Assembly: GCA_035640715.1 (NCBI GenBank)
Contig: DASQVO010000066.1
Coordinates: 1 to 47,531, forward strand
DNA length: 47,531 nt
Direction of reading: 5' to 3'
From: Streptosporangiaceae bacterium
GTDB taxonomy: Bacteria > Actinomycetota > Actinomycetes > Streptosporangiales > Streptosporangiaceae
A model generated the notes under the pieces. The model saw only the letters and a program-made list of their open reading frames with translations, searched no databases and was not told where the DNA came from. Shown here piece by piece: positions 4,393 to 33,733 of this stretch; within the stretch, counting starts at the first letter, position 1, and each line of letters starts with the position of its first letter. Both the position numbers and the translations under genes were made by a program.

Positions 4393-4688
4393 TCCTGCCA
4401 GGCGCAATCCCCGCATCCGGGGACGCAGTGCCCCGCCGGACGGCACCGCGCGGCGCGGCTGCCGCCGGGCTGCCCGGCATGTATAGTTATGCGCCGAACC
4501 GTGGCAGGAAATCCCTGAAGTGCCACCGGACACTCTGGACAGATCACCGTCAGCGAGTCGTGCTGGAAGGGAACTCCCACGTCCGGGGAGCTTGCCACGG
4601 GCTCGTCTTCTACCTGTAGCCTGCCTTCACATAAGGCGTGGCATACCCGAGAGTCGGCCAGCTTCCATATGGCGGAAGGAAACGTGCG

Positions 4689-5903
4689 GTGACCGGACCG
4701 GCGCCGAAAGGCAATTTCGAGCTTGACGCTGTCGTCATCGGCGGGTGCGGGCATGTCGGCCTGCCCCTTGCGATCGCACTTGCCGCCCGCGGTGCGCGGG
4801 TCGGCATCTATGACGTGAGCGAGACCGCGGTCGAGACGGTCAATGCCGGCCGGCTGCCGTTCGCCGAGCCCGGCGCCGCGGAGCCGCTGCGCGCTGCCCG
4901 CGCCGCGGGCCAGCTGGAAGCATCGGCCGATCCCGCCATCGTGGCCAGCGCCGAGCACGTGATCGTGGTGATCGGCACGCCGGTGGATGAGCACCTCAAC
5001 CCCGACCAGGTAGCCATACCCAACGCACTCGGCAGCTGTTCCAGATACCTGCACGACGGGCAGATCCTCATCCTGCGCAGCACCGTGTACCCCGGGGTGA
5101 CGGCGCTGGTGGAGAAGATGGTCGCCGGGCTGGGCGTCGACATCGACGTGGCGTTCTGCCCCGAGCGGATCGCCGAGGGCAAGGCCATGACGGAGCTGTT
5201 CGAGCTCCCGCAGATCGTCTCGGCCCGCACGGCCCGCGGCGCGGAGCGGGCGAGCCGGCTGTTCAGCCGGCTCACCGACAAGCTCGTGATGATGTCCCCG
5301 GAGGAAGCCGAGCTTGCCAAGCTCTTCACCAACGTATGGCGCTACATCAAGTTCGCGACCGCCAACCAGCTCTACATGATGGCCAACGACCGCGGCCTCG
5401 ACTTCGAACGCATCCGGCAGGGGCTGGCGCAGGATTACCCGAGGGCCGCCGACATGCCGGCCGCCGGGTTTGCAGCCGGGCCGTGCCTGTTTAAGGACAC
5501 GATGCAGCTCGCTGCCTTCAACAACAACAACTTCGCTCTCGGGCACACCGCGATGACGATCAACGAGGGCATGCCGCTCTACCTTGTCCACCGCCTCGAG
5601 CAGAACTTCGACCTTGCGTCCATGACGGTCGGGATCTGTGGCATGGCGTTCAAGGGCGGCTCGGACGACATCCGGTCGAGCCTGTCGTACAAGCTCAAGC
5701 GGATCCTGACCTTCAAGGCCGACACGGTGCTGTGCACCGACCCGTACGTGACCGTCGACCCGGACCTGCTCCCGCTGGAGAAGGTCATGGCCCGGTCGGA
5801 CCTGCTGGTGATCGCCGCGCCGCATCCGGAGTACCGGGAGCTGGCGACGGACAAGCCGGTGGCCGACATCTGGAACATCACCGGGAAGGGCGTGCGGGTA
5901 TGA
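4689..5903 (+). CDS. Nucleotide-sugar dehydrogenase (UDP-glucose/GDP-mannose dehydrogenase family)
   Basis: Rossmann motif VIGGCGHVGLPLA, catalytic Cys in AAGPCLFKD, C-terminal UDP-binding-like domain. GTG at 4689 sits 8 nt after GGAAGGA; the longest ORF begins at 4638. Confidence 0.85.
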   Translation: MTGPAPKGNFELDAVVIGGCGHVGLPLAIALAARGARVGIYDVSETAVETVNAGRLPFAEPGAAEPLRAARAAGQLEASADPAIVASAEHVIVVIGTPVDEHLNPDQVAIPNALGSCSRYLHDGQILILRSTVYPGVTALVEKMVAGLGVDIDVAFCPERIAEGKAMTELFELPQIVSARTARGAERASRLFSRLTDKLVMMSPEEAELAKLFTNVWRYIKFATANQLYMMANDRGLDFERIRQGLAQDYPRAADMPAAGFAAGPCLFKDTMQLAAFNNNNFALGHTAMTINEGMPLYLVHRLEQNFDLASMTVGICGMAFKGGSDDIRSSLSYKLKRILTFKADTVLCTDPYVTVDPDLLPLEKVMARSDLLVIAAPHPEYRELATDKPVADIWNITGKGVRV

Positions 5904-6664
5904 CCGGCGACGACCCGCGCGTGTCGGTCGTCATGCCCGCCTACAACGAGGGCGGGCAGATCGTTCCGATACTTGACCGGCTCTTCGAGTCGGTACGCCT
6001 GTCCTGCGAGGTCCTCGTCATCGTCGATACCGACACCGACACGACGATCCCCGTCATCGAACAGTACGCGAAGAAGGAACCGCGGCTCCGCTGCCTGATT
6101 AACACCTACGGCCGCGGGCCGGCCAACGCGATCAGGTTCGGCATCGACGCCGCCGCGGCGCCGGTCGCCGTCGTGACGATGGCGGACGGCTGCGATGACG
6201 CGCGGCAGATCGACGAGCTCGCGCGGCTCGTGGAACGCGGCGTCGCCGTCGCCGCGGCCTCCCGCTACATGGCCGGCGGCCAGCAGGTCGGCGGTCCCGT
6301 CCTGAAGGGCACGCTGTCCCGGATGGCCGGCCGCTCGCTGCGGGTACTGGCGCACGTCGGCACCAGGGACGCGACCAACTCGTTCAAGGCGTACTCAACG
6401 GAGTTCGTCCGGGAAGTCGGCATCGACTCCCGCGACGGCTTCGAGATAGGCATCGAGCTCACGGCCAAGGCCAAGCGCCTCGGCCGCCCTGTCGCCGAGA
6501 TTCCCACTATCTGGCTGGACCGGCAGGCAGGCGTCTCCAACTTCCGGGTTGCGAAGTGGATTCCCAGCTACCTGCGCTGGTACCGGTTCGCGTTCGGCTC
6601 CCGCCTGACCGCTGAGCAGATACGCGTTCGCGCGTCCCAGGAGCGTCATTCGTCAGCCGGCTAG
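5900..6664 (+). CDS. GT2 glycosyltransferase, polyprenyl/dolichyl-phosphate sugar synthase-like (DPM1/ArnC-like)
   Basis: VSVVMPAYNEG start of a GT-A fold; acidic motifs IVDTDTD and MADGCDD; FKAY...GFEIGIEL tail as in Ppm1/DPM1-type enzymes. The ATG overlaps the upstream stop (ATGA at 5900-5903). Confidence 0.8.
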   Translation: MTGDDPRVSVVMPAYNEGGQIVPILDRLFESVRLSCEVLVIVDTDTDTTIPVIEQYAKKEPRLRCLINTYGRGPANAIRFGIDAAAAPVAVVTMADGCDDARQIDELARLVERGVAVAAASRYMAGGQQVGGPVLKGTLSRMAGRSLRVLAHVGTRDATNSFKAYSTEFVREVGIDSRDGFEIGIELTAKAKRLGRPVAEIPTIWLDRQAGVSNFRVAKWIPSYLRWYRFAFGSRLTAEQIRVRASQERHSSAG

Positions 6665-6671
6665 CGAATAC

Positions 6672-6748
6672 GGGCTTTCTGGGCCCATGTGAGCGGCCAG
6701 TGCGGGCTGCGACGACAGCCTACCCGGGCCGCCTGAATGGCGCGAAAA
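6672..6748 (+). repeat. About 75-nt hairpin-forming repeat, copy 1 (partner at 18801-18875)
   Basis: CCCATGTGAGCGGCC[A/G]GTGCGGGC...CAGCC...GGGC[C/T]GCCTGAATG[G/A]CGCGAA is shared by both copies. The outer stem is GCGGCC/GGCCGC here. Confidence 0.55.
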
Positions 6749-6800
6749 CTTCCGGGCAGGCACCGCAAGACGCCGGACATAAGGAAAGAATGAAAGGGAG

Positions 6801-7829
6801 ATGATGGAGAAAGTTCTCGTCAGTGGCTCGGCGGGCTTCATCGGCGGTTATGTCGTCGAGGAACTGCTCCGGCGAGGCTACGCGGTCGTGGGTGTGGACA
6901 ACTTCTCCAAGTACGGGAAGGTGAAGAAGTCCTACGACGATCATCCGCACTACCAGATCGTTGAAGGCGACGCGCGCGATGTCGGCCTGATGACGAGCCT
7001 GCTCGCTGACTGTGATCACTTCATCGCCGGCGCGGCCATGATCGGCGGCATCTCCTACTTCCATACCTACGCCTACGACCTGCTGGCGACCAATGAGCGG
7101 ATTATCGCCGCCTCCTGCGACGCGGCGATCAAGGCCCACCAGGAGGGCCGCCTGCGCAAGGTCACCTACCTGTCGTCGTCCATGGTCTTCGAGAGCGCGA
7201 ACGAGTGGCCGTCGTATGAGGGCCAAGAGCGGGAGGTCCCGCCGCCGCTGTCGTCCTACGGGTTCCAGAAGCTGGCTGTCGAGTACTTCGCGCACGCCGC
7301 GTGGGACCAGTACCAGCTGCCGTACACGATCGCGCGGCCGTTCAACTGCGTAGGGATCGGCGAGAGCCGGGCGCTGGGCGACGAGGAGATCCTGTCCGGC
7401 AACGTCCGGCTGGCCATGAGCCACGTCGTTCCCGACCTGGTGCAGAAGGTGCTCAAGGGCCAGGACCCGCTGCACATCCTCGGCTCGGGTGAGCAGGTCC
7501 GGCACTACACCTACGGCGGCGACCTCGCCACGGGCGTGGTGACCGCGATGGAGCACCCCGACGCCCGCAACGAGGACTTCAACCTGTCCACGGCGGAGAG
7601 CACCACCGTGCTCCAGCTGGCCGAGGTCATCTGGCGCAAGATCAAGGGCGACGGGGTGCCACTGCGGATCATCAACGACGAGCCGTTCACTTACGACGTG
7701 CAGCGGCGCATCCCAGCCGTCGACAAGGCCAAGCGGATACTCGGCTTCGAGGCGACGACGACGCTGGACCAGATGCTGGACGAGGTCATCCCGTGGATCC
7801 GCAACGCCGTCGAGGCCGGCACGATCTGA
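6801..7829 (+). CDS. NAD-dependent epimerase/dehydratase (extended SDR)
   Basis: GSAGFIGG glycine motif; catalytic S...YGFQK (YxxxK). 342 aa. Confidence 0.9.
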   Translation: MMEKVLVSGSAGFIGGYVVEELLRRGYAVVGVDNFSKYGKVKKSYDDHPHYQIVEGDARDVGLMTSLLADCDHFIAGAAMIGGISYFHTYAYDLLATNERIIAASCDAAIKAHQEGRLRKVTYLSSSMVFESANEWPSYEGQEREVPPPLSSYGFQKLAVEYFAHAAWDQYQLPYTIARPFNCVGIGESRALGDEEILSGNVRLAMSHVVPDLVQKVLKGQDPLHILGSGEQVRHYTYGGDLATGVVTAMEHPDARNEDFNLSTAESTTVLQLAEVIWRKIKGDGVPLRIINDEPFTYDVQRRIPAVDKAKRILGFEATTTLDQMLDEVIPWIRNAVEAGTI

Positions 7830-7851: not shown

Positions 7852-9597
7852 ATGTCGGCGTCGGACGAAGGGGCGGCAGGCCAGGGAGCCGGGCCAGCGG
7901 GTGGCATAGCGGTCGTCCCGGCGGCGCGACGCCGTGGCGGCGAGCCGCGCCGCCCGGCCGCGCTCGGCAATGCCGCCCGCTGGCTCTGGCCAGCTGCGTT
8001 CGCGCTGGCGGGGATCGTGCTGTTCCTTGTGTACCTGCGGCTCTCGAATACCTACCCGGAGAACTCCGACCAGGCGAACCTCGGGCTGCAGGCCTGGGAC
8101 ATGCTGCACGGCAACCTGCTGCTGCACGGCTGGGTCTTGTCGGACGTGTCGTTCTACACGACCGAGCTGCCGCAGTACATGCTGCTCGAGCTGATCCTCG
8201 GCCTGCACACCGGGACGTTCCACGTGGCCGCGGCGATGACTTACACGCTGGTGGTGCTGCTCGCCGCGCTGCTGGCCAAGGGCAAGGCAACCGGCCGCGA
8301 GGCCGTGGTCCGGACGATGGTGGCCGGCGGGATCATGCTCGCGCCGCAGCTTGGCTTCGGCGTCTTCGTGCTGCTGCTGACTGTGGGGCACATCGGGACG
8401 TCAGTGCCGCTGCTGCTGACCTGGCTCGTGCTGGACCGCTGGCGGTCGCGCTGGTATGTGGCGGCGGTGATCGGGATCCTGCTGGCGTGGGGAGCCGTGG
8501 CGGATTCCCTGGTGCTTGCGGTGGGCGCCGTGCCACTGGCGCTGGTCTGCGGGTTTCGCGTCATCCAGGGGCTCTTCAGCGCGGCCGGCACGGATGGCGG
8601 CCCGTCCGCCAGGCTCAGCCGGGTGCTCCGGTCACGCTGGTACGAGCTGTGCCTGGCCGGGGCTGCCGTGGCAGCGGCCGGGGCCTCCTGGGCGGTGACC
8701 AGGCTGATCCGCGCACTGGGCGGCTACGCCGTGCACCCGGTCACGTTCCAGATCGAACCGGTGCGCCAGTGGGTCGCCAACATCCCGGCCACGTGGCATG
8801 GAGTGCTCCTGCTCTTCGGCGCGGACTACGTCGGCGCCAAGCCCGGCTCCGGGCTTGACTTCGCCCTCCTCCATCTGGTCGGCGTGGCCCTGGTGGGCTG
8901 CGCGCTGCTGCTCGTGGTGCTGCGGTTCTTCACCCGGGTATCACTGACCGACCAGGTGCTGGCCGTCGCCATCGTCATCAACGTGGTTCTGTACCTGATC
9001 AGCAACATGCCCTCGCTGAACCCGCATGAGCTAGCCGTCGTCCTGCCGTGCGGGGCGGCCCTGGCCGGCCGGATGCTCGCCGGCCGGGCACGGGCCAGCG
9101 TGCACACTGGCCCGGTGCGCCGCGGCGTGCCCAGCGGGCCGGTGCGGGCCGCGCTGGGAGGGCTGGGAGGGCTGGTCCTGGCCGGTTACCTGCTGGGCCT
9201 GGCCCATGAGGCCACCCGGCCGCCTGTTCCGGCGGACAAAGCGGATCTCACCTCATGGCTGGCCGCCCATCACCTCACCAGCGGGCTGGGCGGTTACTGG
9301 GAGGGAAGCATCGTTACCGTCGAGAGCGGGGGCAGCGTCAAGGTCCGGGCGCTGATGCAGTTCACTCTCCAGGCCGATATGTGGGAGGCGAAGGGTTCGT
9401 GGTATGACCCCCGCTCGCAGCGGGCCAACTTCGTCGTCTTCGACAGCCTGCCAGGGTTCCGCCGGCACTGGGAGCCCTACTCGCTGGTCCGCAAGTATTT
9501 CGGCGTTCCCGCGCGCACATACCGGTTCGGCCCGTACACGGTGATGGTCTGGGACAAGAACCTGCTGGCGAGCATCCCGGCCGGCTGGCAGATTTAA
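7852..9597 (+). CDS. Polytopic membrane protein, family A paralog 1; putative GT-C-fold glycosyltransferase with a C-terminal soluble domain
   Basis: 581 aa with many hydrophobic spans. The loop after TM1 reads NSDQANLGLQAWDMLHGNLLLHGW. The C-terminal block reads GYWEGSIVTVESGG...WEAKGSWYDPRSQRANFVVFD...RTYRFGPYTVMVWDKNLL. Paralogous to 12884-14584 and 15759-17456. Confidence 0.7.
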   Translation: MSASDEGAAGQGAGPAGGIAVVPAARRRGGEPRRPAALGNAARWLWPAAFALAGIVLFLVYLRLSNTYPENSDQANLGLQAWDMLHGNLLLHGWVLSDVSFYTTELPQYMLLELILGLHTGTFHVAAAMTYTLVVLLAALLAKGKATGREAVVRTMVAGGIMLAPQLGFGVFVLLLTVGHIGTSVPLLLTWLVLDRWRSRWYVAAVIGILLAWGAVADSLVLAVGAVPLALVCGFRVIQGLFSAAGTDGGPSARLSRVLRSRWYELCLAGAAVAAAGASWAVTRLIRALGGYAVHPVTFQIEPVRQWVANIPATWHGVLLLFGADYVGAKPGSGLDFALLHLVGVALVGCALLLVVLRFFTRVSLTDQVLAVAIVINVVLYLISNMPSLNPHELAVVLPCGAALAGRMLAGRARASVHTGPVRRGVPSGPVRAALGGLGGLVLAGYLLGLAHEATRPPVPADKADLTSWLAAHHLTSGLGGYWEGSIVTVESGGSVKVRALMQFTLQADMWEAKGSWYDPRSQRANFVVFDSLPGFRRHWEPYSLVRKYFGVPARTYRFGPYTVMVWDKNLLASIPAGWQI

Positions 9598-9599
9598 TG

Positions 9600-9614
9600 T
9601 ATATGTCACATATA
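9600..9614. promoter_or_regulatory. Perfect 7-1-7 palindrome TATATGT-C-ACATATA in an AT-rich intergenic patch; possible operator or internal promoter
   Basis: Read directly from the sequence. It lies 3 nt after the stop of 7852-9597 and about 100 nt upstream of the GTG of 9713-11263, in the only AT-rich stretch of this part of the block. Confidence 0.35.
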
Positions 9615-9712
9615 AGGAACATTGCTCTTGCCGTCTCCATGGCCAATAACCTCGGCACGGTGAGGCAGCATCGGCGCGCTGAGCTAGCCGCCCCGCGGAG
9701 GAGGAGCGACTA

Positions 9713-11263
9713 GTGACCATCCGAGGGCACCGGAACACCGCGTCAGCGGCAACCGCCGTGCGCCGTCCATGGTGGATCTGGGCGGGGCCCTTCGCGATAT
9801 TGCTCGCCGTGCTACTGGTCCGCAACCGGTTCCTCTTCACCACCCGCATCTACGAGCACGGCGATGCCGGCGCGAACTCGATCCTGATCCAGCAGGCCAT
9901 GCACGTCACCCTGCTGGTCGGCAACTACTCGCGCGAGGGTTTCAACCATCCGGGGCCGGCGTACATGTATGTGCAGGCGTTCGGCCAGTGGGTGTTCCAG
10001 TACGCACTGCATGTGGTGCCGACCGCCTGGAACGCTCACATGCTCGCCGTCTTCGTGCTCAACAGCGCCCTGCTGGCGATGGCTGTCGCCATCGTCTACG
10101 GCTGGACGCGCTCGCTGCGCGGTGCTGCCGCCTGCTTCGCGGTCCTCCTGGTCTTCGCCGCCGTGCACCCGCCAGCGGTCAGCTCGGACTGGAACCCATA
10201 CGTGTACGTCCCGACGTACTGCGTTTTCGTGATCGCGGCGGCGTCGGTGGCGGCCGGGCATTCACGCGATGCGTGGATTCTCGCGCTGACCGGGTGGTTC
10301 CTCATCCATGGCCAGGCATCCTTCCTGTTCTTCGTCCCGGTCATTGTCCTTGCGGCGCTGGCTGTCCTGGTGTGGGCGCACCGGCGGACACCGGTCGCGT
10401 CGCTACGGCGTTTCTTCCGCGAGCAGCGGAAGACCTGGATCGCCGCGGGTGGCATCAGCGCCCTGTTCGCCCTGCCGATCGTCGTCAACCTGTCGCTCAA
10501 CTGGCCGGGTGACTTCGCCAAGTACGTTGCCTACGGCCGCTCGAAGCACGCCGGCGGCCACACGCCCGCGCAGATCGCCGATTACGCGCTGTGGTTCTGG
10601 TGGCCGCACGGCAACGCGTGGCTGGCGCCCGTCCTGCTGTACGGGCTCGCGATCAGCGTGACTTTCTGGCTCGCCCGCGGTCCGCTGCGCCGGTTCTTCC
10701 TTACGCTGCTGGGCATCAACCTGGTGTCATCCCTGGCGCTCGGCATCTACGCCGCGGCCGGCATCGACTTCCTGTCCGAGTACTACATCGGCTACTTCTA
10801 CTGGTCGGCGCCGCTGGTCACGATGCTCGTCATCGCCGTCGGCGTAGGACAGGCGCTCACCTTCCGCTGGGCCACCGCCGTGGCCGCGGCCGGCGCGGCG
10901 GCCGCTCTCGTCGTGCTCGCGGCAGTTCCCGGGATACGCACGAGTACGGCGGATTCCGATCCGGGCCTGCCACGGGCCGTTGCCGCGCTTGCCGCCCGGG
11001 CGCCGGGCCGGCTGATCGTCCTGACCATCGACCACGGGACCTGGATTGACACCACCGGTTTCCTGGTCCAGGCGGAGCGGACGCACGTGCGGGCGTGCCT
11101 GGACCAGCCGTGGTGGAGTTTCATGATGACCAGGCAGTTCATCTGCACATCCCGGGAAGCCGCGGCCGGGGTGCATTACTGGTTCGACTCGCCGAAGCCT
11201 GCGCCGAATTCGCCGGTCATCCTGCGTTTCGGCAACACCGATGTTGCTGTGGGGCCACATTGA
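9713..11263 (+). CDS. Polytopic membrane protein, family B paralog 1; putative GT-C-like
   Basis: GTG start after GGAGGAGGAG. 516 aa. The loop after TM1 reads YEHGDAGANSILIQQA...NYSREGFNHPGPAYMYVQAFGQW. Tandem paralog of the next gene. Confidence 0.7.
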   Translation: MTIRGHRNTASAATAVRRPWWIWAGPFAILLAVLLVRNRFLFTTRIYEHGDAGANSILIQQAMHVTLLVGNYSREGFNHPGPAYMYVQAFGQWVFQYALHVVPTAWNAHMLAVFVLNSALLAMAVAIVYGWTRSLRGAAACFAVLLVFAAVHPPAVSSDWNPYVYVPTYCVFVIAAASVAAGHSRDAWILALTGWFLIHGQASFLFFVPVIVLAALAVLVWAHRRTPVASLRRFFREQRKTWIAAGGISALFALPIVVNLSLNWPGDFAKYVAYGRSKHAGGHTPAQIADYALWFWWPHGNAWLAPVLLYGLAISVTFWLARGPLRRFFLTLLGINLVSSLALGIYAAAGIDFLSEYYIGYFYWSAPLVTMLVIAVGVGQALTFRWATAVAAAGAAAALVVLAAVPGIRTSTADSDPGLPRAVAALAARAPGRLIVLTIDHGTWIDTTGFLVQAERTHVRACLDQPWWSFMMTRQFICTSREAAAGVHYWFDSPKPAPNSPVILRFGNTDVAVGPH

Positions 11264-11279
11264 CAGCGGGGAGCGGCGA

Positions 11280-12869
11280 GTGACGATTGGGGACTGGAAG
11301 ACCGCTGAGCCCCGGGCAGCCGGGTCTGCCATCCCGGTCGTGATCACAGACGGGCCGGGCGGGGCGCGCCGTCCATGGTGGATTTGGGCCGCGCCTTTCG
11401 CGGTCCTGTTCACCACCCTCATCGTCCGCAACCGGTTTCTCTTCACCACTCGGCTCTATGAGCGCGCCGATTCCGCCGCGAACTCGATCCTGATCCAGCA
11501 GGCCATGCACTTCACCCTGCTCGTGGGCAATTACTCCCGTGAAAACTTCAACCATCCCGGGCCGGCGTACATGTACGTGCAGGCGTTCGGGCAGTGGCTG
11601 TTCTACGACGGGCTGCACGTGGTGCCGACCGCCTGGAACGCCCACGTGCTCGCCGTATTTGCCCTCGACAGCGCCTTCATGGCCCTGGCCGTGCTCGTCG
11701 TCTACGGCTGGACCGGCTCGCTGCGCGGGGCCGCGGCCTGCCTGACGGTCATCCTCATCTTCGCTGCCTCGCACCCGCAGGCGGTCAACAACGACTGGAT
11801 GCCGTACATGTACATCCCGACGTACTGCGTCTTCGTGATCGCGGCGGCGTCGGTGGCGGCCGGGCATTCACGCGATGCGTGGATTCTCGCGCTGACCGGG
11901 TGGTTTCTCATCCACGGCCAGGCGTGCTTCCTGTTCTTCGTCCCCTTCATCATTTTTCCGGTGCTGGTGGCTCTGGTGTGGGCGCACCGGCAGACGCCGG
12001 CCGCGTCGCTGCGGCGCTTTGTCCGCGGCCAGCGGAAGGTCTGGATTCCGGTCGTTGCCATCAGCATCCTGTTCGCCTTGCCGATCGTCGTCAACCTGGC
12101 GCTCAACTGGCCGGGTGACTTCGGGAAGTACTTTGCCTATGGCAGGTCCGCGCAGGCCGGCCACCACAGCGCCGCGCAGATTGCGCATTTCGTGCTGTGG
12201 TTCTGGTGGCCGCACAGCAACGCGTGGCTGGCGCCGGTCCTGCTGTACGGGCTTGCGATCGGTGTGACCTTCGGCCTCACGCGGGGGCCGCTGCGCCGGT
12301 TCTTCCTCGCGCTGCTGGGCATCAATCTGGTGTCATCCCTGGCACTTTGCATCTACGCGGCGGTCGGCATCGATTTCCTTTCCGAGTACTACATCGGCTA
12401 CTTCTACTGGTCGGTGCCGATGATCACCTTGCTCGTGATCGTCGTCGGCGTTGGCCAGGCGATGGGTCCCCGCATTGGCACGGCTGCGGCCGCGGCCGGG
12501 GCGGTGACCGCGCTCGTCGTCCTCGCCGCGCTGCCCGGCCTGCGTACGAGCACGCAGCGCACCGATCCGAGTCTGCCCGGGGCCGTCGCCAGGCTCGCCG
12601 CCATGGCCCGTGGCCGGACGATCGTCCTGACCATCGGCCAGACTCAGTGGGGCGACACCACCGGCTTCCTCGTGCAGGCCGAGCGGACCCAGGTCCGGGC
12701 CTGCGTGGATGAGCCGTGGTGGACATTCATGATGACGAAGCAGTTCATCTGCACGCCGCAGGAGGCCGAGACCGGGGTACATTACTGGTTCGACTCGCTG
12801 AAGCCTCCGCCGCACGCGCCGGTCATCTTCCGTTTCGGCGGTTCCGATGTCGCAGCGAAGGCCGGTTGA
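11280..12869 (+). CDS. Polytopic membrane protein, family B paralog 2; tandem duplicate of 9713-11263
   Basis: GTG at 11280 sits 7 nt after GGGGAG. Both copies start VTI...RRPWWIWA.PFA. Similarity is very high along the whole length. Confidence 0.7.
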   Translation: MTIGDWKTAEPRAAGSAIPVVITDGPGGARRPWWIWAAPFAVLFTTLIVRNRFLFTTRLYERADSAANSILIQQAMHFTLLVGNYSRENFNHPGPAYMYVQAFGQWLFYDGLHVVPTAWNAHVLAVFALDSAFMALAVLVVYGWTGSLRGAAACLTVILIFAASHPQAVNNDWMPYMYIPTYCVFVIAAASVAAGHSRDAWILALTGWFLIHGQACFLFFVPFIIFPVLVALVWAHRQTPAASLRRFVRGQRKVWIPVVAISILFALPIVVNLALNWPGDFGKYFAYGRSAQAGHHSAAQIAHFVLWFWWPHSNAWLAPVLLYGLAIGVTFGLTRGPLRRFFLALLGINLVSSLALCIYAAVGIDFLSEYYIGYFYWSVPMITLLVIVVGVGQAMGPRIGTAAAAAGAVTALVVLAALPGLRTSTQRTDPSLPGAVARLAAMARGRTIVLTIGQTQWGDTTGFLVQAERTQVRACVDEPWWTFMMTKQFICTPQEAETGVHYWFDSLKPPPHAPVIFRFGGSDVAAKAG

Positions 12870-12883
12870 GAGGGGGTGACAAA

Positions 12884-14584
12884 ATGACGTCGCTCGGCCG
12901 CGGGTCATCTCGGCGAGGGGCAGGTGCCGGGGCGCCGGCCCCAGAAATGCCGGCGATCTCTTCGGCCAAGGAGGCCGGGCGCGGCCTACGGACACCAGCT
13001 GCCCGGAAGATAGCGTGGGCAGCCGGGTATGCGGTGGCGGCTGTGGTCTTGTTCTTCTGCTACCTCCGGCAGTCGCGGACGGTGACGGTTGGTGCCGACG
13101 GCGGGTCAATCGCGCTTCAGGCATGGGACATGCTCCACGGCAACGCGCTGCTGCAAGGCTGGGGCATGTCGGACGTGTCGTTCTATTCGACGGAACTCGT
13201 GCAATACGTGCTGCTGGAGGCACTCCACGGACTGGGCCCCGATGTGATCCACATTGGCGGGGCGATGACGTACACGCTGCTGCTGCTGCTTGCGGGATTG
13301 GTGGCCAAGGGCCGCGCGGGGGGCCGCGAAGGCCTCGTCCGGGTCCTGGTCGCGGGCGGCATCATGCTGGCCCCGGCGCTGGGCAATGCGACCTCAACGC
13401 TGCTGCTGACCCCGGATCATCTCGGCAGCGCGGTGCCCGTGCTGCTGGCGTGGCTGCTCGTGGAGCGCCTGCCGCAACGCTGGTACGTGCCTGTCGCCGT
13501 ATGTGTCGTGCTGGTGTGGGGGCAGGTCGCCGATCTCCTCGTGCTCCTCACCGGGGTCGCGCCGCTGGTTATTGTCTGCGGCATCCGCGTGGGCCAGAAA
13601 GTGTGGCGTCGGGAGCCGCTCAAGTCTCAGTGGTATGAGCTAGCGCTCATCGCTGCCGCGCTGGCCTCCGTGGGGCTTATGCGCGCTGCCGAGGCCCTCA
13701 TCCGCATCAGCGGCGGTTTCGTGCTGCAGCCAGTTGCCATGAGCTTCGCCGGATGGTCCGCGATGCCGCAGCATCTCCTGGTCACGGGCGAAGGCCTGCT
13801 GACGCTCTTCGGCGCGTCCTTCTTCGGCCCGGAGCCCAGCAACTACATGATTTTCGCTGTGCTGCACGTCGCGGGCGTTGCCGCGGTGGCCTGGGCTTTC
13901 TGCGTCGCCATACGGCGGTTCGCGCGCCGGGAGGAGCTAATCGTCCCGGCGCTCGTCCTCGCGATCGTGCTCAACGTGGCGGCGTACGTGCCCGGTACGT
14001 ACGTGGCGAACCTCCTCAGCACGCGTGAGATCTCCGAGGTGTTGCCGTTCGGCGCGGTGCTGGCCGGGCGGCTGCTGGCCGGCCCCATCGTGCGGGCTGG
14101 CCGGGCGGTCCGGCTCGTACTGGGGTCACTGGGGATCACCTGCCTGGTCTGCTATGCCGCTGCGGCGGGCTACGGCGCCGCCCAGGCGGCGGTGCCAGCC
14201 CAGAACCAGGATCTCGTGGCCTTCCTGATGGCACACGGCCTCCGCAGCGGGCTCGCGGGCTACTGGCAGGCCAACAGCGTGACGCTGGACAGCGGGGGCC
14301 AGATCGTGGTCAGGCCCGTGAAGCTGAACGCGGCGGGACTGGCGGTGGCGAACCTCTGGGAGGCGAAGGCGTCGTGGTACGACCCGCGGGCCAACCAGGC
14401 CAACTTCGTCGTCACCGTCAGCAGGCCGCCGTCCCAGGAATGGCAAATGCAGCCTTTCCAAGCACGGGACACGTTCGGCCACCCGGTGCGGACGTATCGT
14501 TTCGGGCGCTACACCATCCTGGTATGGCACACTAACCTGCTGGCCCATCTCGGCCAGGGCGTAGACAAGAGCGTCGGGCCGTAG
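12884..14584 (+). CDS. Polytopic membrane protein, family A paralog 2; putative GT-C-like
   Basis: ATG at 12884 after GAGAGGGGG. Motifs GADGGSIALQAWDMLHGNALLQGW and C-terminal GYWQANSVTLDSGG...WEAKASWYDPRANQANFVV...RTYRFGRYTILVWHTNLL. Confidence 0.7.
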   Translation: MTSLGRGSSRRGAGAGAPAPEMPAISSAKEAGRGLRTPAARKIAWAAGYAVAAVVLFFCYLRQSRTVTVGADGGSIALQAWDMLHGNALLQGWGMSDVSFYSTELVQYVLLEALHGLGPDVIHIGGAMTYTLLLLLAGLVAKGRAGGREGLVRVLVAGGIMLAPALGNATSTLLLTPDHLGSAVPVLLAWLLVERLPQRWYVPVAVCVVLVWGQVADLLVLLTGVAPLVIVCGIRVGQKVWRREPLKSQWYELALIAAALASVGLMRAAEALIRISGGFVLQPVAMSFAGWSAMPQHLLVTGEGLLTLFGASFFGPEPSNYMIFAVLHVAGVAAVAWAFCVAIRRFARREELIVPALVLAIVLNVAAYVPGTYVANLLSTREISEVLPFGAVLAGRLLAGPIVRAGRAVRLVLGSLGITCLVCYAAAAGYGAAQAAVPAQNQDLVAFLMAHGLRSGLAGYWQANSVTLDSGGQIVVRPVKLNAAGLAVANLWEAKASWYDPRANQANFVVTVSRPPSQEWQMQPFQARDTFGHPVRTYRFGRYTILVWHTNLLAHLGQGVDKSVGP

Positions 14585-14684
14585 GGCGGTGCTGCAGAAG
14601 TCTGGCCGGGCGGCGCATACCGATCACGCGGGACGGTACACGATCATGGCGTGGGACACGAACCTTCTTGCCCGGCTCCGATAA
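14583..14684 (+). pseudogene. Relic of the 3' end of a further family-A paralog
   Basis: Translates as ...SGRAAHTDHAGRYTIMAWDTNLLARLR* (stop at 14682-14684). This aligns to the C-terminus ...GQPARTYRTGPYTILVWNQNLLSRLR* of 15759-17456. No upstream body is present. Confidence 0.6.
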
Positions 14685-14776
14685 GCGGCATGCCTTCCCA
14701 TAACCGGCAAAGGCCGCTCTCGGCCATGCCGGCCAGTAGGCTGGCAGGGCTCATGTCACCGATCTTGAGGTATCCA

Positions 14777-15745
14777 ATGCGACGCATCCTCGCGCTCATC
14801 GCTTTCCCGCTGCTGGGCGCCTCTGCGCTGGCTGGCTGCGGGTCGTCCTCGCCGTCTACGCCGTCGTCGGCGGCGAACGCCGCCGTCACCGCAAAAGGGA
14901 CGTTCGGCAAGGCGCCGTCTGTCACGATCCCGAAGGAGAAGCCAGGCAGCGCGCTCACCGTCAAGACCCTGATCCAGGGGAACGGGGCCACGATCAAGAA
15001 GTCAGATCTGGTCCTCAGCAACTTCACGCTGTACCTGTGGAGCGGCACGAAGAACAAGCTGGTCGACTCGACCTACCAGTTCACCCCTCAGGTACTTCCC
15101 GCCTCTCTGCTTCCCGGAATCGAAACCGCCCTGACCGGCGAGAAGCTTGGCAGCCGGGTACTCGCGGTGCTCCCGCCAAAGGAAGGCTACGGCAGCAACG
15201 GCAACCCCCAGCTCGGCGTGTCTGGCTCCGACACGCTCGTCTTCGTCATGGACTTGATCCAGAGGTACTCCTCCGGCGCGGTCTCAGCATCCGGTTCGCA
15301 CGTGTCAAGCGGCGGAGGCGCCCTCCCAACGGTCAGCGCGGCGCAGGGCAGCGCGCCGGCCGTGACGATCCCCAAGGGCGTGACGCCCCCGAAGACGCTA
15401 GTGGCGAAGACCCTGATCAGGGGCTCCGGGCCGGCTGTCACCAAGGGGCAGGACCTCGTCGTCCAGTACACCGGCGTCAACTGGCGTACCGGCAAGGTAT
15501 TCGATTCCTCGTGGTCGCGTGCAACGCCCTTTTCCTTCAAGATCGGGGCAACGCCCAGCCAGGTCATCGCCGGCTGGGACAAGGGCCTCATCGGCCAGAC
15601 CGTGGGCAGCCGCGTGCTGCTGGTCATCCCGCCGTCCGACGGCTACGGCAGCGCCGGGCAGGCACAGGCCGGGATCAAGGGCACCGACACTCTCGTCTTC
15701 GTGGTCGACATCATCAGCGCCGTAAATCCCGGCTCAGCTGCCTGA
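14777..15745 (+). CDS. Lipoprotein with two FKBP-type peptidyl-prolyl cis-trans isomerase domains
   Basis: Signal peptide plus lipobox MRRILALIAFPLLGASALAGC. There are two FKBP modules; the second is classic: VVQYTGVNWRTGKVFDSSW...FKIG...VIAGWDKGL.GQ.VGSRVLLVIPP..GYG. ATG at 14777 follows GAGG. Confidence 0.85.
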   Translation: MRRILALIAFPLLGASALAGCGSSSPSTPSSAANAAVTAKGTFGKAPSVTIPKEKPGSALTVKTLIQGNGATIKKSDLVLSNFTLYLWSGTKNKLVDSTYQFTPQVLPASLLPGIETALTGEKLGSRVLAVLPPKEGYGSNGNPQLGVSGSDTLVFVMDLIQRYSSGAVSASGSHVSSGGGALPTVSAAQGSAPAVTIPKGVTPPKTLVAKTLIRGSGPAVTKGQDLVVQYTGVNWRTGKVFDSSWSRATPFSFKIGATPSQVIAGWDKGLIGQTVGSRVLLVIPPSDGYGSAGQAQAGIKGTDTLVFVVDIISAVNPGSAA

Positions 15746-15758
15746 TCAGGGCTTATCG

Positions 15759-17456
15759 ATGGCTGGGCAAGCACCAGAGACGGCAGGAGCCGCCCAGGCG
15801 GTCGGTGCCCCGGACATGCCAGGGGCACCGCCGCCCGGTCCCGCGCCGGACCTCGGCACCCGGGCGGGACACGGGAAGGGGGGCGCGGAGGGCGCGGCAG
15901 CCCCGGCCGGCCCGGCGCGCCGCGGACGATGGGCGTGGGCGGCCGCGTTCACGGCGGCCGGGATCGCCTTGTTCGCTGCCTACATCCGGCTGTCAGCCAC
16001 CTATCCGGTGAACTCGGACGGGGCGAACATTGTGCTGATGGCGTGGGACATGCTGCACGGCAACCTGCTGCTGCACGCCTGGTCCATGTCGGATGTGGCG
16101 TTCTACACCACCGAACTGCCGCAGTACATGCTGCTGGATCTCATCCGCGGGCTGAGCCCCGATGTGACCCATATCGCGGCTGCCATGACCTACACGCTCG
16201 CGCTGCTGCTCGCGGCGCTGCTGGCGAAGGGCCGGGCGCCGGGCGGGGAAGGCGTCGCCCGGGTGCTCGTGTCGGCGGGGGTCATGCTGGCGCCCCAGCT
16301 CGGCGTGGGCATCTTCGTCCTGCTGCTGTCGGTGGGCCACATCGGCACGGCCGTGCCGGTCCTGCTGACCTGGCTGGTGCTGGACCTGGCGCGGCCGCGC
16401 TGGTTCGTGCCGGTCATCGCCGGTGTCATGCTGGCCTGGGCGATGACCGCCGACTCCCTCGTGCTTGTGGTGGGCGTCGCGCCGCTGGTGCTGGTGTGCG
16501 CGCTCCGCGTCGTGCAGCGGCTTGCGGCGCGCCAGGCGCTCCGGACCGCGTGGTATGAGCTGTCGCTGGCCGTCGCGGCGCTCGCCGCGATCGCGGCCTC
16601 GTCGGCCGCCGGGAGGGTCATCCACGGGATCGGCGGCTACACCCTCCACCCGGTGCCGTACAGCTTGGCCGACGTGACCGCGTGGCCGGCGCACCTGCGT
16701 GTGACGGCCCAAGGGGTACTCGCGATCTTCGGCGCCAGCTTCACCGGATTGCGGCCGGGTGCCGCCCTGGTGTTCGCGATACTGCATCTCGCCGGGCTGG
16801 CGATGGTGGTGTGGGCGCTGTGGCTCGTGGCGCGGAACTTCCTGCGCCGGGCCGGGCTCATCGATCAGGTCCTGGCCGTCGCGATCGTCCTCAACCTGGC
16901 CGTATACGTGCCCAGCGCGCTGGCGAGCGGCGTGCTGAACGCGCGGGAGTTCGCCGTCGTGCTGCCGTTCGGCGCCGCCCTCGCCGGGCGGGTGCTCGGC
17001 CCTCGGGTGAGGGGAACGAGGCTCGCGCCGGCGCTGCTGGCCGTACTCGCCGGATACGGGCTTTCGCTTGTCTACGGGGCGGCGCAACCCCCGGCCCCGC
17101 CGGCGAATGCGCGCCTGGCTACGTGGCTGGCCGGCCATCACCTGTACAACGGGCTGAGCGGCTACTGGCAGGCCAGCAGCGTCACGCTGGACAGCGCGGG
17201 CAAGGTCACGATCAGGGCGCTGGTGACGCACGGCGCCGGGCTCGTGCCGTACCAGTGGGAATCAAAGAGCACCTGGTATGACCCGCGCTCGCGGCAGGCC
17301 AACTTCGTCGTCCTCGACAGCCAGCCGGGATTCTTCAACTACTGGGAGCCTGCGGGCCCGGTCCGCGCGGTGTTCGGCCAGCCGGCGCGGACCTACCGCA
17401 CCGGCCCGTACACGATCCTGGTCTGGAACCAGAACCTGCTCAGCCGCCTCCGCTGA
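15759..17456 (+). CDS. Polytopic membrane protein, family A paralog 3; putative GT-C-like
   Basis: 565 aa. NSDGANIVLMAWDMLHGNLLLHAW and C-terminal GYWQASSVTLDSAG...WESKSTWYDPRSRQANFVVLD...RTYRTGPYTILVWNQNLL. Confidence 0.7.
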   Translation: MAGQAPETAGAAQAVGAPDMPGAPPPGPAPDLGTRAGHGKGGAEGAAAPAGPARRGRWAWAAAFTAAGIALFAAYIRLSATYPVNSDGANIVLMAWDMLHGNLLLHAWSMSDVAFYTTELPQYMLLDLIRGLSPDVTHIAAAMTYTLALLLAALLAKGRAPGGEGVARVLVSAGVMLAPQLGVGIFVLLLSVGHIGTAVPVLLTWLVLDLARPRWFVPVIAGVMLAWAMTADSLVLVVGVAPLVLVCALRVVQRLAARQALRTAWYELSLAVAALAAIAASSAAGRVIHGIGGYTLHPVPYSLADVTAWPAHLRVTAQGVLAIFGASFTGLRPGAALVFAILHLAGLAMVVWALWLVARNFLRRAGLIDQVLAVAIVLNLAVYVPSALASGVLNAREFAVVLPFGAALAGRVLGPRVRGTRLAPALLAVLAGYGLSLVYGAAQPPAPPANARLATWLAGHHLYNGLSGYWQASSVTLDSAGKVTIRALVTHGAGLVPYQWESKSTWYDPRSRQANFVVLDSQPGFFNYWEPAGPVRAVFGQPARTYRTGPYTILVWNQNLLSRLR

Positions 17457-17467
17457 ATCCGGGAGCC

Positions 17468-18754
17468 CTACCAGATCCGGGTCCGGTACACGGCGACGGC
17501 GATGAGGATCGGAGCCGCGCATGCCGCGAACGCCTTGAGGCGACGCTGTGGCGTGGCGAACAGGATCAGCACGGCCAGCAAGTACACCTCGACGAACGAC
17601 CGCAGGTCCGCATAGCCGTTCCAGTTGGTGGGCGACAGCGAGAAGATCTCCACTACGTACAGGACGAAGGCGAGGCGCTCGTATACCGGCACCGCGGTGG
17701 CACGCAACGACAGCAGCGCGGCGATGGCGAAAACGGCGAGGACCAGGAACTCGACATCCCAGATGATGACCGCGCCAGGCGCGCCGCCCACCACGGCGGT
17801 GGGGTGGGTGAAGTTGTGGACCACCGCCTTGATGCCGGCCGACAGAGGGAAGCTGGCGTTCTTCCCGCCGTCGCTCAGGATGGGGAAGACCCCCGTCGCG
17901 GCCTTCAGCACCACTTCCCAGCCGATGAAGACGACACCGGGCAGGACCCAGGCCAGGTCATCGAGTGACGGCCGGGCGCGGCGGCGGACGATCTCGATGA
18001 GCCGCACGATGCCGAGCGCCACGGGCGCGACCAGGACCGTCTCCCGGGTGAGGCACCCATAGGCGAACGCGACCGCGGCGAGCACCGGGTGCCGGCGGCG
18101 GTAGGCGAGGATCCCGGCGAGCAGGCATACGGCGCCCAGCGGCTCGGTCAGGTCGCGGGCCAGGCTCGTCATGAGGCCGAAATAGCCGGCCAGCAGCAGG
18201 CCCCATATCGCGTGGCGGCCGGACTCGCGGGCGAGTAGGCCGCCGAGCAGGCCCAGGACGCCCATGGCCACGATATTGATCGCGACCAGCGCATAAGGCA
18301 CCGCCGAATGCTGGCCGCCTGAGATAAGCCAGGTGAGAGCGGAGTAACCGATCCGTATGAACCGGTACGAGTAGTCCATGGTGATGCCGAATGCGGTCCG
18401 GTGGAGGTTGGCGGGGTCCAGCGCCATCCGGTAGTAGAACTGCCCGTCGTAGCCGGTGTAGCGGAAGACATGCACGCCAGGGGGGAGCCGAGCCGGGTTG
18501 CCGTATTTGTCGCCGACCAGCATGAGGTCGGTGACGTTGCGATGGGCCAGCAGCACCATGCGCACGATGACCACGCCCAGTGCGACCACGAAAGCGATCA
18601 GCCCGGGGACGGCCGGCCGGTTCGTCACCGTCCGCAGCGCTGAGCGCTGCCCCGGCACGGTCGTGTCGCCGGCTGTCGTTGATGCCAGGTGCACCTGCGG
18701 CCTCCACCCTGCGTGCCAGCCCGGGCCGGGCATGTTGCCTGCCGGGAACGTCAT
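17468..18754 (-). CDS. Polytopic integral membrane protein with a YDGQFYY loop motif; possible GT-C/PIG-V-like transferase or polymerase
   Basis: 428 aa, hydrophobic throughout. FRYTGYDGQFYYRMALDP follows the first TM. Convergent with 15759-17456, with an 11-nt gap. Confidence 0.6.
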   Translation of the reverse strand: MTFPAGNMPGPGWHAGWRPQVHLASTTAGDTTVPGQRSALRTVTNRPAVPGLIAFVVALGVVIVRMVLLAHRNVTDLMLVGDKYGNPARLPPGVHVFRYTGYDGQFYYRMALDPANLHRTAFGITMDYSYRFIRIGYSALTWLISGGQHSAVPYALVAINIVAMGVLGLLGGLLARESGRHAIWGLLLAGYFGLMTSLARDLTEPLGAVCLLAGILAYRRRHPVLAAVAFAYGCLTRETVLVAPVALGIVRLIEIVRRRARPSLDDLAWVLPGVVFIGWEVVLKAATGVFPILSDGGKNASFPLSAGIKAVVHNFTHPTAVVGGAPGAVIIWDVEFLVLAVFAIAALLSLRATAVPVYERLAFVLYVVEIFSLSPTNWNGYADLRSFVEVYLLAVLILFATPQRRLKAFAACAAPILIAVAVYRTRIW

Positions 18755-18800
18755 TCACAACCGGCCAACACGACCGGGGGTCCGCCCGGGCCCGCACAGC

Positions 18801-18875
18801 GGGCCTTGCCCATGTGAGCGGCCGGTGCGGGCCGGGCTGGCGGCAGCCACCGCGGGCTGCCTGAATGACGCGAAG
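18801..18875 (+). repeat. About 75-nt hairpin-forming repeat, copy 2 (partner at 6672-6748)
   Basis: Same core sequence as copy 1. The outer stem is GCGGCC/GGCTGC, a G-U wobble only if read as plus-strand RNA. The apical stem GCTG/CAGC is kept but carries a different loop. Confidence 0.55.
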
Positions 18876-18950
18876 TACTGACGAAGACAAGTACCAAATA
18901 AGACATTGCGTCCGAGGGACGCCGACAGCGTACCGGACGCTGGCGCTGGG

Positions 18951-19386
18951 TTAGCCGTTCTTGCCTGGGCGATCGGTGAGGTCGTCGATGATCAGGCCGA
19001 GGGCGATGCCCATCATCCACGAGTCCTTGGCGAGCGCGATGCCCTGCTCCGTCGGGAACGGGGTACCTTCCCGGCGCATGCCGGGCGTTTTGGCGTACAG
19101 GCCGAGCAGGCCGCCGGAGAACGCTGCCAGGCCCGCGCCGGCCAGGGCGGACGGCACGAACGGGATTAGCAGCGCCGAGCCCAGCGTGATCTCGGCGGCC
19201 GCGAGGAGCTTCGCGAAGTCCTTCGGCTTCAGCTTTTTCAGGAACGGGTACGTGCCTGCCGCGAATCCGTGCAGCTGTGCGGCGGTCTCCTCGTCCGCGG
19301 ACAGCTTGCCCACACCGGAGTTGAGGAAGAACGCGCCCGTCGCCATCCGCGCCGGCAGATGGCTTGCCTTCACCAAAAGTCTCATG
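18951..19386 (-). CDS. Small integral membrane protein (DoxX-like topology; family not assigned)
   Basis: ATG at 19386 after AGGAGCG. 144 aa with hydrophobic segments GAFFLNSGVGKL, LLAAAEITLGSALLIPFV and GLAAFSGGLLGLY. Confidence 0.6.
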
Positions 19387-19480
19387 TTCTCGCTCCTATC
19401 GCTACGGAAAGTCAGGTTCCATTGTTTCCCACCGCCCCGGCACCCCGTCCCGGGGGACCATGGTGCTGCCCTGTCTCCCC

Positions 19481-19600
19481 GCTCGCTCATGCTCTGTCTC
19501 CCCGCTCGCCTCCGGGGCGCCTTGACGCGCCGCCTTCCCTCGTCGCTCGTACCTCGCTCCTCAGTCCAGGCGGCACGGCGCCCCTGCGGCTCGCTCATGC
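19481..19600 (-). repeat. Stop/start-junction mini-ORF hairpin element, copy A
   Basis: About 94% identical to 38174-38290. On the minus strand it begins GCATGAGCGAGCCGCAGGGGCGC, with its ATG overlapping the TGA of 19595-20839, and it is bounded by the direct repeat GCATGAGCGAGC. Confidence 0.7.
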
Positions 19601-20839: not shown

Positions 20840-20950
20840 TCCGGCAGGTTAACCTCATCACTCCGGCGGGGTAGCCGGGCGCGCGGATTATGCACCCGCA
20901 CCCGGCCGCGGTGGGCGAGAATATATCCGGACCGGGGAGGAGGGGTGCCG

Positions 20951-23774: not shown

Positions 23775-23997
23775 TGGTCGCTACCTGCTTCCCATAGCAA
23801 AATGGACAAAACGGAGGATCACCCATATACAGCGCCGTAGGCGGCTCAGGCGTCACAGCAGACGGCCGTCACAAAAGTTCACAAATCCGCAAGCAGCCTG
23901 GGGCGTCGGGGGCTGCTGTTCGGGGGATCTGCCGTGTAGACTCACGTCTGAAAAGCCCGATTGCGGGGGGGCAGCATCCCCGCCAAAGAGGACGGAC

Positions 23998-24330
23998 ATG
24001 ATTGGCGACCTGTTTGACAGTCCGTGGAAGATCCTTATTGTCGCCGTGGTGCTCATCGTGCTCTTCGGCTCCACGAAGCTCCCGACCGCGGCCAGGTCAC
24101 TGGGCCGGTCGATGCGCATCCTCAAGTCCGAGGTGCAGGGTCTGCACGGTGACGACGCCGAGCCCGAGCCAGCTCCACCGGCGCGGGCCGAAGCGCAGCC
24201 CACGGCGCAGCAGCAGATCACGGCGGCGCAGCAGCAGACGGCGCAGCAGCAGATCGATGACCTTCAGCAGCAGCTCAGCAAGCTGAAGGGGGCCTCCGCC
24301 GGGGACCAGCGGACTCAGCAGCCAAGCTGA
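23998..24330 (+). CDS. tatA: Sec-independent translocase TatA/E
   Basis: [43 protein letters not shown] is the canonical TatA TM plus amphipathic helix. Gln-rich tail. Confidence 0.9.
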
Positions 24331-33730: not shown

Positions 33731-33733
33731 GAG

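Follow-up and report, generated by a model that had tools for sequence, protein, structure and literature searches.

Glycosyltransferases of the GT-C fold assemble or decorate a cell's outermost glycans, and among them are drug targets (Emb), a determinant of antibiotic resistance (ArnT) and serotype determinants (Gtr). ArnT, the undecaprenyl-phosphate-4-amino-4-deoxy-L-arabinose (L-Ara4N):lipid A transferase of family GT83, has 13 transmembrane (TM) helices. The rhizobial Rgt transferases are ArnT-like members of the same family, and their system depends on an upstream UDP-sugar dehydrogenase and epimerase. In that system RgtE is the bactoprenyl-phosphate galacturonic acid (GalA) synthase, and RgtD and RgtF are lipid A GalA transferases (PMC7663294). 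AftB has 11 TM helices together with a cap in the periplasm, with its catalytic Asp at the tip of juxtamembrane helix 1 (JM1); it is classed as GT-C_A together with PglB, ArnT and PimE, and the hallmark of this class is a conserved N-terminal TM1-7 module with JM1 and JM2 between TM1 and TM2, and in all GT-C_A enzymes the tip of JM1 bears the catalytic Asp (PMC12041299). The combination of one lipid-sugar synthase with GT-C enzymes is also found in Gram-positive multi-component systems (PMC8035078), whose GT-C components are highly divergent, so that in many cases only structure prediction reveals them (PMC8035078; PMC11127046), as in the case of GT136, founded in the latter study. Here we describe a locus in 47,531 nucleotides of DNA from Streptosporangiaceae bacterium (contig DASQVO010000066.1 of assembly GCA_035640715.1, positions 1 to 47,531, forward strand; this whole stretch is the window), which encodes three paralogous membrane proteins of one family (A1, A2 and A3) and two of another (B1 and B2). 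An earlier reading of the letters alone, hereafter the sequence-only reading, had described family A as an unassigned membrane protein with a GT-C-like acidic loop. In our best reading, A and B are two sequence families unnamed in current databases, GT-C_A-like and facing the outside of the cell, and we consider it likely that they are lipid-sugar-dependent GT-C glycosyltransferases which work with the donor genes adjacent to them.

AlphaFold2 models, built on alignments of about 100 sequences, were obtained for A1 (pLDDT 78.9, pTM 0.81) and B1 (pLDDT 82.9, pTM 0.86), and both were compared with the PDB using Foldseek. A GT-C core was predicted for both, as only GT-C enzymes were matched at a probability of 1.00. 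The top 23 matches of A1 were all GT-C, comprising AglB (7e9s, E=3e-6), STT3, DPY19, AftA, ArnT, PglB, AftB, ALG9/12 and EmbC, and TM-scores of 0.50-0.55 were noticed against ArnT (5ezm/5f15) and AftA. Similarly, the top 24 matches of B1 were all GT-C, the first being ArnT (5ezm, E=3e-6), with STT3, ALG9/12, AftA, DPY19, PglB, AftB, ALG3, Pmt4 and Emb among the others. Most of these matches, PglB, ArnT and AftB included, are GT-C_A enzymes. Unrelated membrane folds, such as those of the MFS and other transporters, were matched by either model only at a probability below 0.35 and a TM-score of about 0.1, and the structures of WaaL, Wzy and SEDS proteins were absent among the 50 matches listed per model. 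Both models consist of 11 TM helices followed by an alpha/beta domain of 110-127 residues, and the TM1-7 module that marks GT-C_A appears to be present in the predicted structures, with two helices in loop 1 as its juxtamembrane pair. The GT-C interpretation is thus supported by predicted fold, and likewise by predicted topology and residue conservation.

For topology, Lys and Arg residues were counted in loops of up to 70 residues, with the modelled helices taken as TM segments. In A1 we found 18 Lys/Arg in 87 inside-loop residues as against 2 in 115 outside-loop residues, and in B1 12 in 48 as against 5 in 116. By the positive-inside rule this bias places the N-terminus in the cytoplasm and loop 1 and the C-terminal domain outside, and an odd count of TM helices starting from a cytoplasmic N-terminus likewise puts the C-terminal domain on the outside. 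The conserved acidic loop after TM1, which the sequence-only reading had drawn as outward-facing, was therefore predicted to lie outside and not in the cytoplasm in both proteins, and the non-hydrophobic C-terminal region noted in that reading proved to be a real alpha/beta domain, predicted to be extracytoplasmic. The conserved residues of this domain in A1 are G478, Y482, W483, W511 and W517-Y518.

Loop 1 of A1 forms two helices (residues 72-87 and 105-116) and has no Lys or Arg and six Asp or Glu; that of B1 also forms two helices (50-63 and 82-98). D73 of A1 (nt 8068-8070) is the second residue of its first helix and was conserved in all 100 close homologs and in 93 of the 95 sequences of a diverse family-A alignment (35-56% identity). 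D51 of B1 (nt 9863-9865), again the second residue of the first helix, was invariant in 101 sequences, and the equivalent residues are D72 in A2 (nt 13097-13099), D87 in A3 (nt 16017-16019) and D77 in B2 (nt 11469-11471). In the models D73 and D51 appear to occupy the position of the GT-C_A catalytic Asp, and they are our best candidates for the catalytic residue. The sequence-only reading had proposed the conserved Asp residues of two motifs, SD and AWD, as the ones to mutate; of these the Asp of the SD (or AD) motif, which is D73, held up, whereas that of AWD, D83, was conserved in only 73 of 95 sequences and is not a prime catalytic candidate, because it is replaced by Ala in 14 of the 95. 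Elsewhere in loop 1, D98 and E105 were each conserved in 92 of 95 sequences. Together with D218 (in the turn that joins TM5 to TM6 on the outer side), H180, R407, P165 and W94 they vary little or not at all in family A and are candidates for substrate or phosphate binding; R407 and H180, along with R236 (84 of 95), are the candidate phosphate-binding residues.

The three family-A genes are present as end-to-end paralogs as had been claimed, and their products share 46-56% identity; the alignment of A1 with A2 extended over the full length and was far beyond chance (BLASTP E=4e-119). The post-TM1 motif, including (S/A)D, AWDMLHGN, SDV.FY and TEL.QY, was found in all three copies, and so were the C-terminal motifs GYW, WE.K, WYDPR, ANFVV, RTYR and NLL, the sole deviation being SAG in place of SGG in A3. 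At 50% divergence A1, A2 and A3 fell into three separate clusters with 32, 20 and 29 members, respectively, from other genomes. Since each of the three clusters has counterparts elsewhere, A1, A2 and A3 are old paralogs that have been retained side by side, and three old subfamilies would fit the earlier suggestion that the paralogs differ in acceptor or linkage specificity. Family A is very large: a word-indexed search gave more than 5,180 matches among 90%-identity clusters, and an exhaustive profile search through 1.84 billion representatives gave 3,429 that stand for 50%-identity clusters, of which 956 were below 1e-30. The same word-indexed search gave more than 1,035 matches for family B. 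All members of both families that carry a name in their source are called 'hypothetical protein', and most are nameless. None of the five A and B proteins had a Pfam or NCBIfam match at E<=1, and profile searches of PDB sequences, with profiles from 3, 100, 95 and 101 sequences, returned only noise and no GT-C match. Some family-A members carry N-terminal extensions of 240-275 amino acids or a C-terminal one of 370 amino acids, in which no Pfam domain was found.

B1 and B2 are 74% identical, and both carry the motif (G/A)D(A/S)(G/A)ANSILIQQA that had been reported for them. From this motif a distant common ancestry of A and B had been suggested, which found no support at the level of sequence: the likeness is limited to TM1 and the start of loop 1 and is statistically non-significant (BLASTP E=2.6), and in hhalign comparisons neither a shallow (P=0.004) nor a diverse family-A profile (P=0.16) matched family B significantly, nor did sub-alignments of the N- and C-terminal parts (P=0.03-0.57). 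What did stand is the shared predicted fold with an Asp at an equivalent position, and a common origin of A and B is plausible only in that sense, namely of a GT-C fold with its Asp at the same structural position and nothing more. Three related loci (L043, L016 and L050) appeared to hold B-A fusions, as stop-to-stop open reading frames (ORFs) with a family-B match in the N-terminal part followed by family A; we rejected these fusions and attribute them to read-through, to frameshift artefacts or to B genes that have become pseudogenes.

The most informative neighbours of A and B lie outside the span which the sequence-only reading had covered, and these are three donor-sugar genes upstream (4638-7829) and the gene for protein C downstream (17468-18754). 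The first donor gene encodes a nucleotide-sugar 6-dehydrogenase (PF03721/PF00984/PF03720; TIGR03026 at 258 bits, above cutoff), whose nearest PDB sequences are the UDP-ManNAcA dehydrogenase 4r16 and Cap5O, and we propose that it catalyses the first step of donor sugar synthesis. The second encodes a family 2 glycosyltransferase (GT2; PF00535, E=9e-19) with sub-cutoff likeness to the NCBIfam models of AglJ, dolichyl-phosphate hexose transferase and ArnC; the nearest solved structure by sequence is the Pyrococcus furiosus dolichol-phosphate mannose synthase (DPMS) 5mlz (E=1e-12, residues 7-227), and on this similarity the GT2 is proposed as the putative maker of the lipid-linked donor. The third product is a short-chain dehydrogenase/reductase (SDR; PF01370, E=5e-39) related in the PDB to GalE, WbmF, the UDP-GlcA decarboxylase UXS1 and UDP-GlcA 4-epimerase-like proteins, none of them decisive. 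With a 6-dehydrogenase and an SDR side by side, the donor sugar may be a uronic acid, the 4-epimer of that acid or a pentose formed by decarboxylation, and we leave the sugar unnamed because both enzymes resolve only to subfamily or superfamily level.

These neighbours were surveyed by tblastn in 75 related loci, a neighbour being a gene within 10 kb of a family-A gene. The dehydrogenase was present in 51 of the 75 loci, the GT2 in 49 and the SDR in 52, while protein C was the most constant neighbour (60 of 75); family B was found in 41 loci, and 57 had at least two family-A copies. The dehydrogenase-GT2-SDR trio occurs near family A in at least three gene orders, with or without the pafA neighbourhood, for example pafA-Ugd-GT2-SDR-A-B-A-A-FKBP-A-C, C-A-A-Ugd-GT2-SDR-B-A-C and C-Ugd-GT2-SDR-B-A-C-A-pafA. 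Such variation of block order between lineages speaks for a functional coupling and against frozen synteny. The adjacent, co-conserved DPMS-like GT2 makes a polyprenyl-phosphate-linked sugar the probable donor of A and B. Among the 71 distinct loci kept as the best of 523 confirmed genome-scan matches, the only cultured genome with family A was that of Streptomyces humicola RB6PN25 (L018, NZ_JANFNG010000001.1:586687-608186), in which the family-A match lies at 10001-11500 with 54% identity. Here A stands beside C, between two SDR epimerase/dehydratase genes, and a GH3 glycosidase and an L,D-transpeptidase are also encoded; neither a GT2 nor a dehydrogenase gene was found within 10 kb of A in this locus.

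Protein C matched NCBIfam NF046093 above cutoff (E=7.6e-48), a model named 'AZOBR_p60025 family cell surface glycopolymer formation protein', and it carries a conserved GYDGQFYYR loop after TM1. Its gene is convergent with that of A3, and in related loci it often forms a divergent pair with a family-A gene. Its homologs are all unnamed; profile searches gave no PDB sequence match, no consistent Pfam match was obtained in 36 members, and the hhalign comparison of C with A was non-significant (P=0.064). Protein C could be another GT-C enzyme, or it could be the flippase for which no other candidate was found. Close by, a small membrane ORF (18951-19361, minus strand) has a weak DoxX/MauE-like match (E about 1e-3, below cutoff) and is not of GtrA type; a 135-amino-acid gene stands at the corresponding position, beside DUF3866, in the related locus L004, matched by position and not by sequence.

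We compared the locus with the described systems, and in both function and structure A and B look nearest to ArnT, AftA and AftB. ArnT was the best or near-best structural match (5ezm/5f15, TM-score 0.48-0.55), and like ArnT the A and B proteins join a polytopic core to a C-terminal domain on the outside; like the Ugd/ArnA/ArnC route, the donor pathway here comprises a sugar 6-dehydrogenase and an SDR, with a GT2 to load the polyprenyl phosphate. Unlike ArnT, A and B have no PMT_2/ArnT Pfam match at E<=1 and 11 TM helices instead of 13, and the locus has no aminotransferase, formyltransferase, deformylase or ArnE/F genes in what is a Gram-positive host without lipid A. The mycobacterial enzymes AftB (GT89), AftA (GT85) and EmbA/B/C (GT53) resemble this set in being actinobacterial and in having several GT-C paralogs that use one polyprenyl-phosphate sugar donor, and AftB in addition shares the 11 TM helices and the outside C-terminal domain. 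They differ in that no sequence homology is detectable, no carbohydrate-binding modules of the Emb/AftD type are present, and the donor module is made of a dehydrogenase, an SDR and a GT2, not of the phosphoribosyl pyrophosphate-based DPPR synthase with DprE1/E2; the host lineage is not known to make arabinogalactan. The Rgt arrangement, RgtE (a GT2) with the GT-C enzymes RgtA-D/F, relies on a single bactoprenyl-phosphate uronic-acid synthase for several GT-C transferases that differ in acceptor position (PMC7663294). The acceptors there are the lipid A and core of a Gram-negative, and A and B match no ArnT/PMT_2 model.

As in the GtrA/GtrB/GtrC, CsbB/GtcA/YfhO and GT136 systems, where a GT-A enzyme makes a C55-phosphate sugar and an outside GT-C enzyme decorates a surface polymer, a GT2 of GT-A type is co-encoded with A and B, its putative product being assigned by homology. 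In contrast to such three-component systems, no GtrA or MATE flippase was found at the locus, the GT2 lacks a TM anchor, and each donor module is accompanied by five to six membrane proteins where those systems have a single one. Compared with the oligosaccharyltransferases (OSTs) of GT66 (PglB, AglB and STT3), A and B have no WWD(Y/W)G string, the nearest motifs being GYW(E/Q) and WYDP, and no STT3 Pfam match; the family-A C-terminal domain of about 125 residues is also much smaller than in OSTs. In Actinoplanes missouriensis, AMIS_70420 has 11 TM helices and no predicted domain and is located in the gsf cluster, beside genes for a UDP-ManNAc/GlcNAc dehydrogenase, GtrA and a GT2; deletion of this cluster resulted in small sporangia, and the authors recognised no GT-C enzyme there (PMC13390465). 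AMIS_70420 is possibly related to family A or B.

Other explanations have to be weighed against this. The best Foldseek E-values of A1 were to the peptide-modifying enzymes AglB, STT3 and DPY19, and the conserved aromatic-acidic motifs GYW(E/Q) and WYDP of its outside domain loosely resemble the WWDYG of OSTs, both of which would fit a glycosylation of proteins, secreted or membrane-bound, such as OST, PMT or DPY19 perform, and not of a glycopolymer or lipid. We regard this as improbable, given that WWDYG itself, a DK/MI motif and a MIR domain are all absent, that the TM-scores to ArnT and AftA were equal or better (0.50-0.55), that the neighbouring protein C is named for glycopolymer formation, and that five to six paralogs per donor module are more typical of builders or decorators of glycans such as Rgt and Emb/Aft. 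Still less probable is a use of polyprenyl-diphosphate-linked oligosaccharides by A and B, in a ligase- or polymerase-like manner and independently of the product of the adjacent GT2. The diphosphate-donor users PglB, AglB and STT3 are indeed among the top structural matches, and near the cluster our scan met with no flippase that would serve a monophosphate donor; on the other side, the conserved neighbour is a DPMS-like GT2, a maker of monophosphate-linked single sugars, the cluster has no initiating phosphoglycosyltransferase, Wzx or Wzy, and, as noted, ligases and polymerases of the WaaL, Wzy and SEDS types are missing from the structural matches listed. That A and B are non-catalytic, being transporters, lipid-sugar flippases or scaffolds that merely resemble GT-C enzymes, seems to us very improbable indeed: no flippase was found among the ORFs scanned, so that C or one of the paralogs might act as one, but transporter folds were matched with negligible scores, and near-invariant acidic, His and Arg residues stand at the expected GT-C active-site positions.

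Several points weigh against our view of A and B as lipid-sugar-dependent GT-C enzymes. No sequence-level link to characterised GT-C families was obtained with Pfam, NCBIfam or PDB profiles, and for this reason the GT-C assignment depends on predicted structures with moderate TM-scores of 0.4-0.55. The candidate Asp, Arg and His residues were chosen by conservation and not by a shared cavity in the model, and residues 90-100 of loop 1 of A1 were modelled at low confidence. The GT2 is without a membrane anchor, the SDR and the dehydrogenase fall below every equivalog cutoff, and a flippase of the GtrA, Wzx, SMR or MATE type was not found near the cluster among the ORFs scanned, several ORFs of the window being outside the Pfam scan. 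Finally, the co-occurrence counts are inflated by shared ancestry, because most of the loci belong to one broad clade of uncultured Streptosporangiaceae-like genomes.

With the lipid-sugar-dependent GT-C reading retained, the locus is best read as a multi-component extracytoplasmic glycosylation system that would make an undescribed envelope sugar polymer or decoration. Alongside what was observed (paralogous genes, a predicted fold, a biased topology, conserved residues and a conserved neighbourhood), the course of events that we infer, with its catalytic activity, donor chemistry, acceptor and role of each residue, would be as follows. The DPMS-like GT2, a presumed cytoplasmic GT-A enzyme, would load the modified sugar onto polyprenyl phosphate, and the lipid-sugar would then be flipped to the outer leaflet. 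Each A or B enzyme would bind the lipid-phosphate-sugar in the outer leaflet and transfer the sugar to an acceptor in the cell envelope, and its catalytic base or nucleophile would be the Asp that tips the first helix of loop 1 (A1 D73, B1 D51), with the small outside C-terminal domain capping the active site or binding the acceptor. Differing acceptor or linkage specificities would come from the three old A subfamilies and from the B pair. A donor module with as many as five to six membrane enzymes might serve decoration at several positions or, more interestingly, the stepwise assembly of a polymer outside the cytoplasm, as with the mycobacterial Emb/Aft enzymes. A bolder idea, which we hold only tentatively and think rather doubtful, is that A, B and C form an extracytoplasmic assembly line that builds, and does not just decorate, an undescribed glycopolymer, rich in a uronic acid or derived pentose, from a single polyprenyl-phosphate sugar donor in Streptosporangiales-like actinobacteria of acid soil and peat. 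If so, this would be a non-mycobacterial counterpart of arabinan and lipomannan assembly, and A and B would found new CAZy families.

The divergence of GT-C enzymes and their discovery by structure prediction are well known. A and B would add new glycosyltransferase families to the classification, and two, perhaps three, very large 'hypothetical' families can now be given a predicted fold and topology, along with a candidate for the catalytic residue and a donor pathway that is plausible. An undescribed envelope glycan is thereby indicated in abundant, mostly uncultured actinobacteria of peat and soil, and Streptomyces humicola RB6PN25 offers a cultured entry point that makes the idea testable.

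The coordinates of the locus are collected in Table 1. The GC content of the window is 67-74%, and the nearest relatives of its DNA are uncultured Streptosporangiaceae/Actinomycetes genomes of soil, bog and peat. Between 4638 and 17456 every gene lies on the plus strand, with intergenic gaps of -23 to 136 nt, and the start of the GT2 gene overlaps the dehydrogenase stop by 4 nt. The A2 ORF can be extended to a GTG at 12716; the upstream gene ends at 12869, and the ATG at 12884 was taken as the start because there is then no overlap with that gene. The start of B2 may be the GTG at 11280, and the database holds a call of 529 amino acids. A scan for promoters and terminators was uninformative: it gave no promoter, and terminator-like sites numbered 8 where 5.4 were expected.

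Table 1. Coordinates of the predicted glycosylation genes and their features in the window
Feature	Position	Strand	Basis or remark
NDP-sugar 6-dehydrogenase (UDP-Glc/GDP-Man dehydrogenase family)	4638-5903	+	Pfam, TIGR03026
Soluble GT2, 254 aa, polyprenyl-phosphate sugar synthase-like	5900-6664	+	PF00535
SDR-type NAD-dependent nucleotide-sugar epimerase/dehydratase (or decarboxylase)	6801-7829	+	PF01370
A1, family-A predicted GT-C, 581 aa, 11 TM + C-terminal extracytoplasmic domain	7852-9597	+	AlphaFold2, Foldseek
A1 extracytoplasmic loop 1, residues 66-119	8047-8208	+	Modelled secondary structure, conservation
A1 C-terminal alpha/beta domain, residues 455-581, predicted to be extracytoplasmic	9214-9594	+	DSSP elements after TM11
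B1, family-B predicted GT-C, 516 aa, 11 TM + C-terminal domain	9713-11263	+	AlphaFold2, Foldseek
B2, second family-B paralog, 74% identical to B1	11241-12869	+	Alignment
A2, family-A paralog, 566 aa	12884-14584	+	Alignment, BLASTP
FKBP-type lipoprotein, lipobox LAGC	14651-15745	+	Inside array
A3, family-A paralog, 565 aa	15759-17456	+	Alignment
Protein C, 428-aa polytopic membrane protein, AZOBR_p60025 family	17468-18754	-	NCBIfam NF046093

The FKBP-type lipoprotein gene inside the array was considered as a member of the system and rejected, as it tracks the pafA/DUF3866/pafBC/tatC/helY backbone and not the glycosylation module; it is probably a bystander. In the window, the glycosylation genes stand to either side of this lipoprotein gene, and the site of their insertion is a conserved actinobacterial backbone (3034-4392 and 14651-28363) of the order pafA - fkbP - DUF3866 - pafB/pafC - tatC - helY-like helicase. 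In other lineages the module is located elsewhere than at this backbone. An ABC-2 type transporter pair, a DrrA-like ATPase with a permease, is encoded at 32666-34639 on the plus strand, non-adjacent and unlinked to the cluster, and could be a glycopolymer or drug exporter. About 10 kb downstream of the cluster, at 28987-30327 on the minus strand, we also noticed an IS605-type OrfB/TnpB with a Cas12f-like TNB domain, a mobile-element nuclease.

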